In this document: positions 44,738-48,286 of the stretch, in pieces
Layout of the letters: every line of letters begins with the position of its first letter
How positions within the stretch are numbered: position 1 is the stretch's first letter
NCBI GenBank assembly: GCA_024654625.1
Contig: JANLHB010000016.1
Coordinates: 137-64,136, forward strand
Direction: 5' to 3'
Origin: Patescibacteria group bacterium
GTDB lineage: Bacteria > Patescibacteriota > Minisyncoccia > GCA-002772825
DNA: 64,000 nucleotides
Program-made: the position numbers and the translations under genes
The notes under the pieces: model-generated
What the model was told of the DNA's origin: nothing
Database searches by the model: none
Seen by the model: only the letters and a program-made list of their open reading frames with translations

Positions 44738-47700
44738 ATGAGTAGATTTAAGAAATCTAGATTGAGTAAAATAGTTTCTGTAACTTTAGGTCTTACGACT
44801 GCTGTTATGATGTTTGGCGGAGTATTGGTTACTCCAGCAAGCGCGGCAACAGTTGAAGAACTTCAGGCGCAGATCGCAACTCTTCTTGCTCAGATCCAAG
44901 CTTTACAGAGTCAGATGTCTGGCATCTCAGGCGGGTCTGTTGCTACAGGAACAGTTTGCGGATTCACATTCGGTGCGAATTTGAAGCAGGGTGATACAGG
45001 GTCAGATGCTATGAATCTTCAAAAGGTTCTTAACTCAGATCAAGCAACACAAGTTGCTTCAAGTGGAGTTGGCTCAACAGGGAACGAATCATCGTATTTC
45101 GGTTCTTTGACAAAGTCAGCTGTTATCAAATTCCAAAACAAATACGCTTCTGATGTTTTGACCCCAGTTGGTCTTACAACAGGAACAGGTTATGTTGGTC
45201 CTTCCACTAGAGCTAAGTTAAATGCTCTCTTTGGAACATGTGCGCCAACTACACCTCCAACAACAGGCGAAGACACAACACCTCCACCAACTTCAGTTGG
45301 TACAGGACTTACAGTATCTTCTGTCGCTCAACCAACAGCATCACTTGCAGTTGAGAGCGCAGCAAGACTTCCATTCACTAAAGTTGCTTTGACAGCTTCA
45401 GCAGATGGAGACGTTACTGTAAATTCAATCCTTGTTGAAAGAACAGGTTTGGCGCAAGACGCTGTTTTTGCCGGAATCGTCCTTTTGGATGAGAACGGAA
45501 ATCAGATCGGTATCGCTAAGACTTTGAACTCAGTTCACCAGGCAACAGTAGGAGATCCTTTTGTTGTTAAGGCTGGACAGACAAGAACAGTTACAATCGC
45601 TGGAAATATGCTAGCAAGCCTAGACAGCTACGCTGGTCAGGTTGCATTCCTTTCAGTTGTTAAAGTAAATACTTCAGCTAATGTATCAGGAGCGCTTCCT
45701 ATTACAGGCGCTGGACACACAATAAACATTAATCTTGCAATAGGTTCAGCTACTCCTGCAGTAGGAGGACTTGATCCTAATGCAAGCGCAAGCAAGCCAA
45801 TCGGTACAACCGGTTATACTTTCGCTTCAGTTAAGGTTACATCTGGTTCAGCTGAGAAAATTCGTTTGAATTCTATCAGATGGAATCAGTCAGGTTCAGT
45901 CGGTTCTACAGACTTGGAGAATTTGAAGACTTATGTTGACGGTACAGCTTATGACGTAGTCGCAAGCTCAAATGGTCAATATTACACTACAAACTTCGGC
46001 TCAGGAATCGTTATTGATAAAGGTTCTTCAAAAGAAGTCTCTATCAAAGGTGATATCGCAGGTGGTTCAGGAAGAACAATAATATTTGATATCTACAAGA
46101 ATACTGATATCAATGTAACAGGCGAGACATTCGGTTATGGAATCACTCCTTCAGGAGAGACTACAGCTACAGCAGCTGACACTTCATCACAATTCACTAC
46201 AGGAACACCATGGTTTGATGGTTCTAAAGTGACAGTATCAGCTGGAACTCTTAATGTTCAGAAGGCTACTACAGTAGAAGCTCAGAACATTGCAGAGAAC
46301 GTAACTGATCAGCCTCTTGGCGGTTTCTTGGTAGAAGCTAAGGGTGAAGAAATTTCTGCTGCAAGCTTGGTATTCCATTTCACAATTGCTACAACATCAG
46401 GTTCAGCGCAAAGCGTTGCAGACGTCACTAATATTACTTTGGTTGATGAAAACGGCAGCATAGTTGCTGGTCCTGCAGACGGAGCAACAGTGGGACTTTC
46501 AGGCGGTACAGTTACATTCTCTGATACAGTTACATTCCCAATCGGTAAACACCTTTACCAATTGAAAGGTAAGATAGGAACTGATTTCGCTAATAACGAC
46601 ACAATTCAGGCTTCTACTACACCTTCAACAGATTGGACGACTGTTACAGGTCAGGTTACTGGAAACAGTATTACACCTTCACCTACATCAGCAGTTGTAG
46701 CTAATACAATGACTGTTAAGGCGTCATCATTGACAATTTCCGTATCACCGGATCCAGCTGCTCAGACAGTTGTTGCCGGAGGTACATTCACTTTTGCTAA
46801 TTATTACTTTGATACAACTGCTTCAGGTGAAGACATCAAGATGTCAACATTGCCTCTAGCTTACGGTGTGTCAGGTGACGGTTCAGCAACAAACCTTACA
46901 AGCTGTGCTTTGTATGACGGCGCTTCACAGATAACAACAGGTTCAAATGTTGTTAATCCTTCAGCTGCCGGTTCTTCAACATCATTCACTATTGATGGAT
47001 CAGGACTTGTAATTCCTAAAGGAACAGTTAAGACAGTTTCATTGAAATGTGATATAGCTGGAAATGCCACAGGTATGTACCTATGGGGAATTGATTCAGC
47101 AGCCACATTTGCAGGAACAGGCTTAACATCAAATCAGTCAGTTACTCCTACAGCTACAGACGCGAATGGTCAGTTGATAACACTGGCTTCAAGCGGATCA
47201 TTCACAGTAGCCCTTGATACTGGTAAGAGCCCTTCATCTAAAGCTGCGGCTGTAGCCGGTTCAACAGGTAATACTGTAGGTGTATTGAAGTTCCATGCTA
47301 CAAACGAAGCAATTGATATTACTAGAGTTGCTCTACAGATAACATCTGCTTCAACATCTAGAAATGACATTGTAAGAGTTACATTGCATGACTACGATTC
47401 AGGTGCGCAGGTTGGCGAAGCATTCTTCACGACTGCTAACAACGCAACATCAACATTAACAAGCGCTTTCAGAATTCCAAAAGATTCTGATAAGTATATG
47501 ACAGTTAAAGCTGATCTTGCTACAATCGGCACAACAGGTCTTGGTACACAAGGTCACTTGGTAACAGTTGATTATGACGGCACTGATTCAACTGGTACAA
47601 GAGGTACAGGTGTAAATTCAGGCTCTACAATCAACACAGGTTCAACAGCTGACTCAGCTGTAAATGGTTTGAGGATGTTCAAATCTCTACCTACAGTTGC

Positions 47701-48286
47701 TAAGGTATCTGTTCCTACAAATAGCTTAAGCAATGGTACAAAGACACTTCTACGATTCAAGGTTACTGCTGATTCAGCAGGCGATGTTGGATTGTATAAG
47801 TTCACTGTCCAGGTTTCTACAACAACTGCTGTTGTAACAAACTTAAACGCTTATGGTTATACTGACGCCGCATTCTCAAATCCAGTATCAGGTGTTAATG
47901 CCGGAGGTAAGTTGATGAACAGCGATAAAGCTTCATTTGCTAACAACGCAGACATTAATGTCGTTATGGATAATGCAGGTACAGCTACTAACATTCAAAT
48001 TCCAGCAGGTCAGACACGATACTTTGAGGTTACTGCCACTGTTGCAAGTTCAGCAGCTGGAGCATCAGTATCAACACAACTACAAGGTGACGCCGCATAC
48101 CCTCAGCTTCTTAGCTACATGGGTGACGTTACTCTAGTTGACGATGACGCTGGTTCAAATGATGACTTTATCTGGTCACCAAATGCAACTACAACTTCAG
48201 CCAATGCGCATGCAGACTGGATAAACGGTTACAACGTAATCGGTCTTCCAGGAGCAAACTTGACTGCGGAAGTATTGTCACAATAA
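44738..48286 (+). CDS. Secreted S-layer-like / cell-surface protein with N-terminal peptidoglycan-binding domain
   Basis: Signal peptide ending ASA, coiled coil, PG_binding_1-like segment (GDTGSDAMNLQKVLN...GSLTKSAVIKFQ), Pro/Thr linker, then about 900 aa of Thr/Ser/Gly/Val-rich beta domains. The gene has markedly higher G+C than its flanks. Confidence 0.55.
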   Translation: MSRFKKSRLSKIVSVTLGLTTAVMMFGGVLVTPASAATVEELQAQIATLLAQIQALQSQMSGISGGSVATGTVCGFTFGANLKQGDTGSDAMNLQKVLNSDQATQVASSGVGSTGNESSYFGSLTKSAVIKFQNKYASDVLTPVGLTTGTGYVGPSTRAKLNALFGTCAPTTPPTTGEDTTPPPTSVGTGLTVSSVAQPTASLAVESAARLPFTKVALTASADGDVTVNSILVERTGLAQDAVFAGIVLLDENGNQIGIAKTLNSVHQATVGDPFVVKAGQTRTVTIAGNMLASLDSYAGQVAFLSVVKVNTSANVSGALPITGAGHTININLAIGSATPAVGGLDPNASASKPIGTTGYTFASVKVTSGSAEKIRLNSIRWNQSGSVGSTDLENLKTYVDGTAYDVVASSNGQYYTTNFGSGIVIDKGSSKEVSIKGDIAGGSGRTIIFDIYKNTDINVTGETFGYGITPSGETTATAADTSSQFTTGTPWFDGSKVTVSAGTLNVQKATTVEAQNIAENVTDQPLGGFLVEAKGEEISAASLVFHFTIATTSGSAQSVADVTNITLVDENGSIVAGPADGATVGLSGGTVTFSDTVTFPIGKHLYQLKGKIGTDFANNDTIQASTTPSTDWTTVTGQVTGNSITPSPTSAVVANTMTVKASSLTISVSPDPAAQTVVAGGTFTFANYYFDTTASGEDIKMSTLPLAYGVSGDGSATNLTSCALYDGASQITTGSNVVNPSAAGSSTSFTIDGSGLVIPKGTVKTVSLKCDIAGNATGMYLWGIDSAATFAGTGLTSNQSVTPTATDANGQLITLASSGSFTVALDTGKSPSSKAAAVAGSTGNTVGVLKFHATNEAIDITRVALQITSASTSRNDIVRVTLHDYDSGAQVGEAFFTTANNATSTLTSAFRIPKDSDKYMTVKADLATIGTTGLGTQGHLVTVDYDGTDSTGTRGTGVNSGSTINTGSTADSAVNGLRMFKSLPTVAKVSVPTNSLSNGTKTLLRFKVTADSAGDVGLYKFTVQVSTTTAVVTNLNAYGYTDAAFSNPVSGVNAGGKLMNSDKASFANNADINVVMDNAGTATNIQIPAGQTRYFEVTATVASSAAGASVSTQLQGDAAYPQLLSYMGDVTLVDDDAGSNDDFIWSPNATTTSANAHADWINGYNVIGLPGANLTAEVLSQ

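Follow-up and report, generated by a model that had tools for sequence, protein, structure and literature searches.

A gene with extreme codon bias that probably encodes the major S-layer protein of a Paceibacteria cell

The gene at 44738–48286 of the window (the whole 64,000-nt stretch of DNA that was analyzed; all coordinates refer to it and all features described lie on the + strand) probably encodes the major S-layer protein of a Paceibacteria (Parcubacteria, CPR) cell. Much of bacterial diversity belongs to CPR/Patescibacteria and, to our knowledge, almost nothing is known experimentally about their envelopes. The locus offers independent genomic evidence for one conserved protein as the main CPR surface coat, namely a translational codon bias that recurs across 74 genomes, a promoter close to the consensus, a predicted stabilizing leader and a peptidoglycan anchor. 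A previous reading of the sequence only (the sequence-only reading) had proposed an abundant, wall-anchored S-layer protein. This proposal was supported by codon usage resembling that of ribosomal protein genes and by a peptidoglycan-binding domain at the family level, and there was no sign of a foreign donor. The identification is not new, because this role was already proposed for the family in a preprint, available to us in part (bioRxiv 10.1101/2024.05.28.596244). Such proteins had also been called poorly characterized, which is true of experiments, but in silico work had already singled out this family.

The open reading frame starts with ATG, was confirmed as real and encodes 1182 amino acids, rich in T (13.8%), A (11.4%), S (10.7%), G (10.7%) and V (9.1%), with a predicted acidic pI of 4.6. 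By inspection, the N-terminus (MSRFKKSRLSKIVSVTLGLTTAVMMFGGVLVTPASA followed by ATVEEL) contains a basic n-region, a hydrophobic core and an ASA motif. This pattern is kept in 76 homologues, and residues 1–38 had low pLDDT in the structure model. A classical Sec signal peptide is visible in the sequence (residues 1–36, 44738–44845; predicted cleavage after ASA), by which the precursor would be exported to the cell surface and cut after Ala36. Residues 39–61 (44852–44920) form a helix in the model with L/I at a/d spacing, and its motif ELxAQIxSLLAxIxxLQAQL is conserved in the family (76 homologues). This heptad-repeat helix is a possible coiled-coil stalk. The Thr/Pro-rich linker APTTPPTTGEDTTPPPTS (residues 168–185, 45239–45292) is disordered in the model (pLDDT below 50 at residues 168–183) and is the least conserved segment of the protein (majority frequency 0.29). 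The gene is followed by an intrinsic terminator (48325–48364), a hairpin (dG −28 kcal/mol, z −6.3) followed by UUUUGCUAUUU (UUUU). Thus, the cleavable signal peptide, the coiled coil (as a heptad-repeat helix), the TPPTT linker and the strong flanking terminator of the sequence-only reading were all recovered, as were its T/S/G/V/A-rich beta domains, which occupy about 1000 residues (186–1182) as six beta-sandwiches. Its statement that the protein has no Cys was wrong. Cys occurs at residues 74, 168, 723 and 771, and C723 and C771, both in the fourth beta domain, are invariant across 76 homologues.

Between the helix and the linker lies a PG_binding_1-type domain (residues 73–167, 44954–45238), a candidate wall anchor identified from Pfam, homologues and the family profile. 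In this copy, PF01471 matched with 20.0 bits (E = 7.7e-4) at profile positions 18–57 only, which is below the Pfam gathering cut-off of 23 bits; this score was counted against the S-layer interpretation. PF01471 was matched by 31 of 40 full-length homologues (best E = 1.3e-13). Further, the family profile, built from 76 sequences, matched the peptidoglycan-binding domain of PDB 1lbu (1lbu_A) with E = 1.5e-4 and 5tv7_A with E = 0.072, and the domain was modelled as helical with pLDDT around 90. Judged from these comparisons, the PG_binding_1 domain is real at the family level, and so the Pfam check proposed with the sequence-only reading succeeded for the family, this copy being below the cut-off.

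Residues 74–165 align to the N-terminal three-helix peptidoglycan-binding domain of 1lbu, the Zn D-Ala-D-Ala carboxypeptidase of Streptomyces albus. The domain here differs in having two short insertions and in being joined to an array of structural beta domains instead of an enzyme. PG_binding_1 (PF01471) is typical of wall hydrolases, and the best solved relatives were 1lbu and 5tv7, as would be expected if the domain targeted a peptidoglycan-remodelling enzyme or a lytic weapon. However, searches of Pfam, NCBIfam, PDB sequences and folds revealed no catalytic domain, and the other 1000 residues are repeated beta-sandwiches. We therefore regard an enzymatic role as hardly credible. MurJ is encoded within the window, indicating that the organism exports lipid II and has a peptidoglycan wall to bind. 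From the sequence, a module that could attach the layer to the envelope is thus present, consisting of the PG_binding_1-type domain and the wall indicated by MurJ. Together, the heptad helix and this domain would attach the protein, by non-covalent binding, to the peptidoglycan of the cell that produces it. The anchor module (residues 37–185) could be of use in wall-binding tests or cell labelling.

The linker, which is probably flexible, would lead into the six modelled beta-sandwich domains, and these may provide the lateral contacts of a two-dimensional coat. The structure prediction proposed with the sequence-only reading yielded these six domains and, with hhalign, internal homology among the first five, D1–D5 (45293–47662; about 150–170 residues each). 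These span residues 186–335 (D1), 336–484 (D2), 485–655 (D3), 656–815 (D4) and 816–975 (D5), with pLDDT mostly above 85 in the AlphaFold2 model (whole-model mean 87). Seven of the ten pairs among D1–D5 aligned at 89–98% probability, connecting all five domains; the probability was 61% for D1–D2 and about 8% for D1–D3 and D2–D3. No Pfam family matched the beta domains in this protein or in 40 homologues. D6 (residues 976–1182, 47663–48283), which bears the conserved motif DDFIWSPNATTTS...DWTNGY, was modelled separately with pLDDT 89.8 and pTM 0.87, and its hhalign match to D5 was weak (53%). The closest PDB structure to D6 was TTHA1873 (E = 4e-4), with a TM of only 0.33–0.41, indicating that D6 has no specific relative. 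D6 is the most variable domain, with the lowest conservation and the most indels. Conservation falls along the protein from 0.72 in D1 to 0.59 in D6, which fits a conserved wall-proximal base and an exposed variable tip. D6 is thus probably the outward-facing tip and, as such, a likely determinant of phage or host contact. In the model of the preprint, the C-terminal domain is the tip (bioRxiv 10.1101/2024.05.28.596244).

Foldseek with the beta domains returned generic Ig-domain arrays only, with PrgB as the top match; the best matches include the Gram-positive adhesins PrgB and antigen I/II, and SdrG/FnBPA-like folds for D6. Ig-domain arrays are typical of adhesins too. The protein might therefore be an abundant adhesin for host attachment or parasitism, in which the Ig-like and possibly the peptidoglycan-binding domains engage the host surface and no self-assembling coat is formed. 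The variability of the distal C-terminal domain is as expected of a host- or phage-facing surface, and highly expressed secreted proteins with a peptidoglycan-binding domain were read as possible host-attachment proteins in PMC10936435. However, the archaeal hosts of that study are attached via sheaths, which makes the wall of the bacterium itself the more plausible target of the peptidoglycan-binding domain. Further, architecture and length are conserved class-wide, whatever the habitat. The codon bias is stronger than in the window's ribosomal protein genes, as would suit a structural protein made in bulk, and neither a lectin nor a CBM nor a specific adhesin was found among the relatives of D6. 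We consider a purely adhesive role unlikely. The S-layer and adhesion roles are compatible, because the tip of an S-layer can mediate adhesion too.

A word-index search gave more than 1,292 matches, the best 120 of which were all 1124–1244 residues long, covered 93–100% of the query and came from Patescibacteria. The family comprises 3,374 clusters at 50% identity (E ≤ 1e-30) and is conserved over its full length. Homologues occur in at least 481 species genomes, and the taxa include Yanofsky-, Kaiser-, Lloyd-, Giovannoni-, Taylor-, Nomura- and Zambryskibacteria, Paceibacter and Minisyncoccia. The organism from which the window derives is a tiny groundwater CPR bacterium.

In the available part of the preprint, a Patescibacteria protein of six Ig domains and 1131–1274 residues is proposed as an S-layer protein, an 18.5-nm p6 lattice is modelled and homologues are described as numerous across classes; the examples are A0A1G2EN61 (1131 residues), A0A0G1WWP5 of Kaiserbacteria (1173 residues) and GMX59286.1 of Parcubacteria (1185 residues) (bioRxiv 10.1101/2024.05.28.596244). 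From its architecture, length, taxa and peptidoglycan-binding domain, we infer that the protein of the window belongs to this family. The two share six Ig-like/beta-sandwich domains, a length of about 1130–1270 residues, a signal peptide and many homologues across Patescibacteria classes. The taxa are also the same (the Kaiserbacteria orthologues in our set are L022 and L073), and the highly transcribed members of the preprint family have an N-terminal peptidoglycan-binding domain. According to the preprint, homologues are among the top five transcribed signal-peptide genes of two cultured Minisyncoccaceae; in the study of these cultures, signal-peptide proteins with a peptidoglycan-binding domain were among the top five transcripts (PMC10936435). 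One of them is a Yanofskybacteria short form (GMX57981.1 = PMX_810_sub_00350, 692 residues), which is secreted, like the protein of the window, and combines peptidoglycan-binding and Ig-like domains. It is in the top five expressed signal-peptide genes of its genome, with a log2 RPKM of 16.7 compared with about 12 for ribosomal protein genes (PMC10936435). In contrast to the protein of the window, which is a long form, it has three Ig-like domains, and the hexagonal pyramid lattice predicted for it in the preprint measures 13.5 nm as opposed to 18.5 nm.

Lattice formation by the protein of the window is putative; lattices were modelled for family members in the preprint, and the monomer was predicted here. 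The anchor, secretion and abundance signals are equally compatible with an abundant wall protein that does not crystallize, such as a fibrillar fuzz, spacer or protective brush anchored via the peptidoglycan-binding domain. The pTM of our monomer model was 0.49, so that the inter-domain geometry is not fixed, and the preprint warns that some highly expressed surface proteins form no lattice. However, it also reports a very clear tendency of members toward hexagonal spiral pyramids, as well as p6 S-layers on ultra-small Patescibacteria by cryo-EM (bioRxiv 10.1101/2024.05.28.596244). Further, D1 and D2 are strongly conserved, suggesting constrained protein–protein interfaces. We judge a non-crystallizing protein to be quite improbable and retain the S-layer interpretation. 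Note that the 13-nm lattice seen by cryo-EM on unidentified Patescibacteria suits the three-domain form better than the six-domain form of 18.5 nm (bioRxiv 10.1101/2024.05.28.596244).

Among known S-layer proteins, csg of Haloferax volcanii has, according to the same preprint, six Ig-like domains in a left-handed spiral and forms a p6 lattice. In contrast to the protein of the window, csg is archaeal and has a C-terminal lipid or membrane anchor and no peptidoglycan-binding domain. It showed no sequence similarity to the protein of the window and was absent from the top 50 Foldseek matches. The S-layer proteins of Gram-positive bacteria (Bacillus Sap/EA1, SbsB/SbpA, C. difficile SlpA) share with it a monoderm wall, a non-covalent anchor at one end, Ig-like assembly domains and an acidic pI, and their genes, like the one here, are monocistronic units between a strong promoter and a strong terminator, with a long 5' leader. 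A long stabilizing 5' leader is established for Lactobacillus and Bacillus S-layer genes. However, the anchor here is PG_binding_1 (PF01471) and not SLH or CWB2, neither of which matched this protein or 40 homologues in Pfam. PF01471 binds peptidoglycan itself, whereas SLH binds a pyruvylated secondary polymer.

The G+C content of the gene is 42.7%, compared with a window mean of 38.2%, and 1-kb bins range from 41 to 43% inside the gene and from 31 to 38% in the flanks. The contrast is thus much smaller than the 45–48% versus 20–35% given in the sequence-only reading, and comparably high values occur elsewhere in the window (e.g., 45.6% at 7–8 kb). The excess is confined to codon position 2 (GC2 0.521, the highest in the window) and is a by-product of the richness in Thr, Ala, Ser and Gly; GC3 (0.266) is the lowest in the window. 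The strong codon bias that had been noted, with a comparison to ribosomal protein genes as the proposed check, was confirmed. The ENC of 41.3 is the lowest among 49 genes of the window, and the gene ranks first of 47 in a codon score derived from ribosomal protein genes (z = 4.5). Codon shifts in the gene and in the ribosomal protein genes of the window are correlated (r = 0.42, p = 9e-4) and of the same direction, but larger in the gene. Of 74 orthologous loci in other genomes, 49 have their lowest local ENC in this gene; its C-ending two-fold codons are more frequent in 73 loci, and its G/C-ending four-fold codons are less frequent in 73.

Acquisition of a foreign gene by horizontal transfer, the opposing scenario named with the sequence-only reading, was ruled out as practically impossible. 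Although its overall G+C content exceeds the window mean by 4.5 points, the gene has the lowest GC3 in the window, which gives no hint of a foreign donor, and the highest GC2, and its codon shifts parallel those of ribosomal protein genes. Further, synteny with the upstream winged-helix gene is conserved in 72 of 80 genomes, and the entire neighborhood is syntenic in relatives.

Upstream of the gene, a sigma-70-type promoter (44322–44349) was predicted, in which the −35 element TTGAAA (44322–44327) and the −10 element TATAAT (44344–44349), separated by a 16-nt spacer, agree with the consensus at 11 of 12 positions. It is preceded by an invariant 9-mer, TTATCCACA (44305–44313), which equals the consensus DnaA box. 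Of 80 loci, 76 carry the 9-mer upstream of the gene. It was exact, on the + strand and present once, 235–714 nt before the start codon, in 56 of 58 loci, and its density was 0.99/kb upstream compared with 0.051/kb elsewhere. The order of 9-mer, 6–10-nt gap, −35 element, 16–18 nt and TATAAT was kept in 54 of 57 loci, with an exact TATAAT in 52 of 57.

The promoter position implies a 5' untranslated leader of about 380 nt (44356–44737); the family-wide estimate has a median of 409 nt (range 184–661). A stem-loop was predicted at the 5' terminus (44357–44378), and over 56 loci the folding energy dipped at +1 to +50 (mean −11.1 compared with about −6 kcal/mol elsewhere). Stem-loops of this kind at the 5' terminus are known to protect mRNA ends. 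The leader is 86% identical to that of a relative whose protein is 78% identical. It contains no Shine–Dalgarno sequence (SD-like sequences precede only 7 of 45 genes in the window) and has no match in Rfam. Very high expression may result from a near-consensus sigma-70 promoter that drives a monocistronic unit, the invariant 9-mer 6–10 nt upstream of the −35 element, an activator-type position, the leader starting with a stem-loop, and the extreme translational codon bias. With ENC, the ribosomal protein-like codon score, the codon signature of the orthologues and the near-consensus promoter as proxies, the protein is predicted to be among the most abundant of the cell. Codon bias, promoter, leader, 9-mer and winged-helix neighbor do not figure in the available part of the preprint (bioRxiv 10.1101/2024.05.28.596244). 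In the papers searched, we found no description of the 9-mer, the stem-loop leader of about 400 nt or the upstream winged-helix gene, and none tied the 9-mer motif to Patescibacteria.

The upstream neighbor (43252–44097) encodes 281 residues, in which a helical domain at the N-terminus and a DeoR-like winged helix at the C-terminus flank a low-complexity region. The neighbor ends at a terminator (44098–44129; 14-bp stem, dG −21.5 kcal/mol, z −9.0, followed by U7), indicating that the surface-protein gene forms a separate transcription unit. In 72 of 80 loci, tblastn located a winged-helix homologue immediately 5' of the orthologue. HTH_DeoR was matched by 17 of 33 members of this family (best E = 3.9e-8), this copy being below the threshold. 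K251, R255, G270, R273, W274 and Y277 are invariant, conservation is 90% or more at S249, T252, Q254 and L257, and the putative recognition helix S/C-E-K-T-I-Q-R is nearly invariant. The winged-helix protein is thus a candidate regulator of the surface-protein gene and would be the likeliest binder of the 9-mer, with DnaA as the alternative. We tentatively propose, with some doubt, a class-wide switch of S-layer expression in Paceibacteria, in which TTATCCACA is an operator 6–10 nt before the −35 element that is read by the winged-helix protein or DnaA. The promoter, the operator and the neighboring candidate regulator could serve as expression tools for the few cultivable Paceibacteria. If DnaA were the reader, synthesis of the coat would be coupled to replication initiation. 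The 9-mer also precedes the promoters of other envelope genes and rpoB, which, if the switch exists, would point to a small regulon in minimal genomes. Each promoter has a single copy of the 9-mer, and no GC-skew switch was found at its position. In two complete genomes (L068 and L076), the locus lies far from position 1.

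The ORF of the surface protein, a putative S-layer protein of 1182 aa, was confirmed at 44738..48286 (+), with an ATG start. The sequence-only reading had described the gene as rich in G+C. This held in direction (42.7% compared with 38.2% in the window), but the contrast was far below the figures given there; 1-kb bins contained 41-43% G+C within the gene and 31-38% in the flanks, and several other stretches of the window were as G+C-rich. Among all 51 ORFs, the gene possessed the highest G+C at the second codon position (GC2, 0.521) and the lowest at the third (GC3, 0.266), and the protein was rich in Thr (13.8%), Ala (11.4%), Ser (10.7%), Gly (10.7%) and Val (9.1%). 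Thus, the raised G+C content resulted from the amino acid composition, and the gene is not a compositional island.

The codon bias claimed for the gene was evident from its effective number of codons (ENC), which was 41.3, the lowest of 49 genes. Four-fold families were nearly devoid of C- and G-ending codons (ACC, 1%; ACG, 2%; GTG, 3%; CCG, 3%; GGG, 2%), and two-fold pyrimidine families leaned to C (TTC, 68% compared with 22% in other genes). When genes were scored for ribosomal-protein-like codon usage, with weights defined by the difference of L11, L10, L7/L12 and S6 from other genes, the surface-protein gene ranked first of 47 (z = 4.5). Further, its codon shifts and the shifts seen in the ribosomal protein genes were correlated (r = 0.42, p = 9e-4). 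This comparison, which had been requested with the sequence-only reading, argues for high expression and against a foreign origin. In other genomes, the ENC of the orthologue was the lowest among local ORFs in 49 of 74 loci, C-ending two-fold codons were commoner in the orthologue in 73 of 74, and G/C-ending four-fold codons were rarer in 73 of 74. The codon signature is common to the whole family. Horizontal transfer, in which the deviating codon usage would be that of a foreign donor, was refuted, because GC3, codon shifts and synteny were all against it.

We modeled the protein using AlphaFold2 from 76 homologues (mean pLDDT, 87). The model agreed with the segments proposed previously: a signal peptide (aa 1-38, disordered, consisting of MSRFKKSRLSK, a hydrophobic stretch and PASA/A), a coiled coil (helix at aa 39-61, with L/I at heptad spacing), a helical domain (roughly aa 73-167), the linker APTTPPTTGEDTTPPPTS, disordered and C-terminal to the helical domain, and beta structure from there to the C-terminus. 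The helical domain had been likened to PG_binding_1. Its own copy scored 20 bits, under the Pfam cut-off of 23 bits, but the likeness stood at the family level: PF01471 was matched by 31 of 40 full-length homologues (best, 1.3e-13), and aa 74-165 of the family profile aligned to the peptidoglycan-binding domain of PDB 1lbu (E = 1.5e-4) and more weakly to 5tv7. By these profile matches, the helical domain is a PG_binding_1 domain. MurJ is encoded within the window, indicating therefore that lipid II is exported and that a wall is present for this domain. The mature protein is acidic (pI 4.6). It had been said to lack Cys; we found four (residues 74, 168, 723 and 771), and C723 and C771 were invariant in the 76 homologues. 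Except for this point and the G+C figures, the earlier observation was largely correct.

The N-terminal region varied within the family. In some members (L010, L016, L022, L028, L031 and other loci with orthologues), the heptad helix ELxAQIxSLLAxIxxLQAQL was replaced by another conserved motif, ALTxSQIDAIISLLQSFGADxxTI, and in some representatives the six-domain body was preceded by an unrelated N-terminal part that is longer (220-260 aa). The N-terminal anchors are apparently exchangeable.

The beta region comprised six beta-sandwich domains, D1 (aa 186-335), D2 (336-484), D3 (485-655), D4 (656-815), D5 (816-975) and D6 (976-1182). When the alignment was cut into these six segments and profiles were compared with one another, seven of the ten pairs among D1-D5 scored 89-98%, together joining all five domains; the weaker pairs were D1-D2 (61%) and D1-D3 and D2-D3 (about 8%). 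By this comparison, D1-D5 are homologous repeats and D6 is divergent. Conservation dropped steadily from D1 (0.72) to D6 (0.59), and D6 held most indels. The approximately 1000 beta-domain residues were not covered by any Pfam, NCBIfam or PDB sequence family, and the single protein as a query yielded zero matches in NCBIfam and in the PDB sequence search. Foldseek with the full model detected generic Ig-domain arrays only (PrgB, complement C5 and integrin alpha; TM <0.2), with a match to the Nitrosopumilus S-layer at E = 6e-9 (TM <0.2). When D6 was modeled alone (pLDDT 89.8, pTM 0.87), a specific structural relative was not found in the PDB, and a lectin or enzyme reading of D6 was therefore not possible. 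A hydrolase carrying the peptidoglycan-binding domain is very unlikely.

The surface protein corresponds exactly to GenBank MCR4283754.1/MCR4342495.1, [quoted passage not shown]. The best 120 database matches were all from Patescibacteria, with lengths of 1124-1244 aa, 93-100% query coverage and 49-78% identity. Scanning all 1.84 billion cluster representatives with HMMER gave 3,374 at E<=1e-30, and a scan of species-representative genomes located the family in at least 481 genomes, belonging to Yanofsky-, Kaiser-, Lloyd-, Giovannoni-, Taylor-, Nomura- and Zambryskibacteria, Paceibacter and Minisyncoccia. The 636-aa DUF11-like and 1596-aa LTD proteins of the window were considered as paralogues and rejected as unrelated; the window contains no paralogue of the surface protein.

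A putative S-layer protein of Patescibacteria was previously proposed from a scan of a Nealsonbacteria genome (bioRxiv 10.1101/2024.05.28.596244, supplement). Its six Ig-like assembly domains are arranged, as in Haloferax csg, in a left-handed spiral, and the members listed, among them GMX59286.1 (1185 aa) and a protein of Kaiserbacteria, are 1131-1274 aa long (bioRxiv 10.1101/2024.05.28.596244). The surface protein resembles this family in architecture, length, taxa and peptidoglycan-binding domain, from which we infer that it is a member; a cluster look-up of ten homologues returned accessions other than the preprint's named members. The S-layer reading is thus supported and had already been put forward in the preprint, and the protein itself, as a further member of a family proposed in silico, is of low novelty. 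In two Minisyncoccaceae, homologues are within the top five transcribed signal-peptide genes (noted in bioRxiv 10.1101/2024.05.28.596244, after PMC10936435). The top transcripts encode proteins with a peptidoglycan-binding domain and similar predicted structures, for which a role in host attachment was suggested (PMC10936435). Such an adhesin role is a rival reading that is compatible with an S-layer role. Another rival is a non-crystalline wall protein. The lattice of family members is an in-silico model, with predicted constants of 18.5 nm for the six-domain form and 13.5 nm for a short three-domain form, and the 13-nm lattice observed by cryo-EM suits the short form better (bioRxiv 10.1101/2024.05.28.596244). 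As the best explanation, the surface protein is probably a peptidoglycan-anchored S-layer protein.

The surface-protein gene is a transcription unit of its own. A terminator (44098-44129, dG -21.5 kcal/mol, then U7) closes the upstream gene, and the strong terminator noted previously was found at 48325-48364 (dG -28 kcal/mol, z -6.3). The 640-nt upstream spacer shared 86% identity with its counterpart in a relative in which protein identity is only 78%, and it was unalignable in more distant relatives save for a 9-mer, TTATCCACA. In the window, the 9-mer (44305-44313) is followed by a -35 (44322-44327) and a -10 element (44344-44349), and a consensus scan independently placed 44322-44349 first among promoter-like sites. 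The layout was fixed across loci: TTATCCACA, 6-10 nt, the -35 (most commonly TTTGCA or TTGAAA), 16-18 nt and TATAAT, which was exact in 52 of 57 loci.

S-layer mRNAs are known to carry long leaders with hairpins at the 5' end. The predicted leader was about 380 nt in the window, compared with a median of 409 nt in the family (range 184-661). When folding energy was profiled by position in 56 loci, a sharp dip fell exactly on the predicted transcript start (mean over +1..+50, -11.1 kcal/mol compared with about -6 elsewhere; mean z, -1.97 compared with -0.4 to -0.6 at control positions), suggesting that a 5'-terminal stem-loop is kept in structure and not in sequence. This profile supports the predicted start. 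The window's own stem-loop (44357-44378) was weak, the fold of the whole leader was only marginal (z -1.95), and an Rfam search of the 640-nt region returned no match. The leader contains a possible small ORF starting with GTG at 44419, which was rejected because this start codon is not kept in the closest relative. Only 7 of 45 window genes carried a Shine-Dalgarno-like sequence no more than 20 nt from the start codon; its lack in the surface-protein gene is a genome-wide trait and not peculiar to this gene, and translation initiation in this genome appears to be largely Shine-Dalgarno-independent.

Of 80 loci, 76 had the 9-mer 5' of the orthologue. In 56 of the 58 loci with complete upstream sequence, it was single, on the coding strand and 235-714 nt 5' of the start codon; its density was 0.99 per kb upstream compared with 0.051 per kb in the rest of the loci. 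TTATCCACA is identical to the consensus DnaA box. A replication origin at this site was rejected: there is one box, a skew switch is absent, and in two complete genomes the site is distant from position 1. Of the remaining 47 copies in the loci, 68% were intergenic compared with 19.5% expected (p = 6e-13). Many of them precede promoter-like sites of secreted or membrane protein genes, including envelope genes, and one lies 5' of the promoter-like site of rpoB (L060, position 10549), suggesting that TTATCCACA defines a small regulon.

In 72 of 80 loci, a homologue of the upstream neighbor (43252..44097 (+), 281 aa) directly preceded the surface-protein orthologue. HTH_DeoR was matched by 17 of 33 homologues of the neighbor (best, 3.9e-8) and the window copy was sub-threshold; the C-terminal domain of the neighbor is a DeoR-like winged helix. 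Its S/C-E-K-T-I-Q-R stretch, the putative recognition helix, was nearly invariant. The presence of such a helix beside an invariant operator suggests this protein as a candidate binder of TTATCCACA and regulator of the surface-protein gene. None of the papers searched connects the TTATCCACA motif with Patescibacteria. The promoter element, leader and regulator-like neighbor were not described in these papers and are testable, which modestly raises the interest of the locus.

Several further features were observed in the window. The 1596-aa giant protein (50670-55460 (+)) is membrane-anchored, with a lamin-tail domain, Ig-like domains and a Q/L-rich heptad segment weakly like the N-terminal surface-protein helix. 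It is followed by a TSP3-repeat protein (55504-56436 (+)), and in the 78%-identical relative (L001) both genes are found in synteny. Two adjoining GT4 glycosyltransferase genes (58472-60753 (+)), 10 kb downstream of the surface-protein gene, may bear on how the Thr/Ser-rich surface protein is glycosylated.

The 19-bp palindrome TCCAAGG-N5-CCTTGGA occurred in six exact copies in 48377-49911 (at 48377, 48503, 48648, 49170, 49379 and 49893; 0.2 expected) and nowhere else in the 64 kb. The copies lie around and within a TPR ORF (48548-49192) and an IS200-like Y1 transposase ORF (49222-49887), and in-frame copies encode QG[VA]PLD; the array and transposase look like REP elements with their RAYT. 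A class A RNase P RNA (7506-8079 (+), 124 bits) spans 574 nt on a 367-position model and therefore contains large insertions. A class I aminoacyl-tRNA synthetase (21193-24798 (+), 1201 aa; tRNA-synt_1 and Anticodon_1) carries a histidine-phosphatase (His_Phos_1) insert at residues 498-662, an unusual fusion. Further, a 482-aa protein combining MtrA-like, thymidylate-synthase-like and pterin-binding DUF4346 domains is encoded beside dCTP deaminase, thymidylate kinase and a ThyX-like protein that is long at 451 aa; together they make up a compact cluster for dTMP synthesis that features odd fusions (17522-18970 (+) and 19735-21090 (+)).
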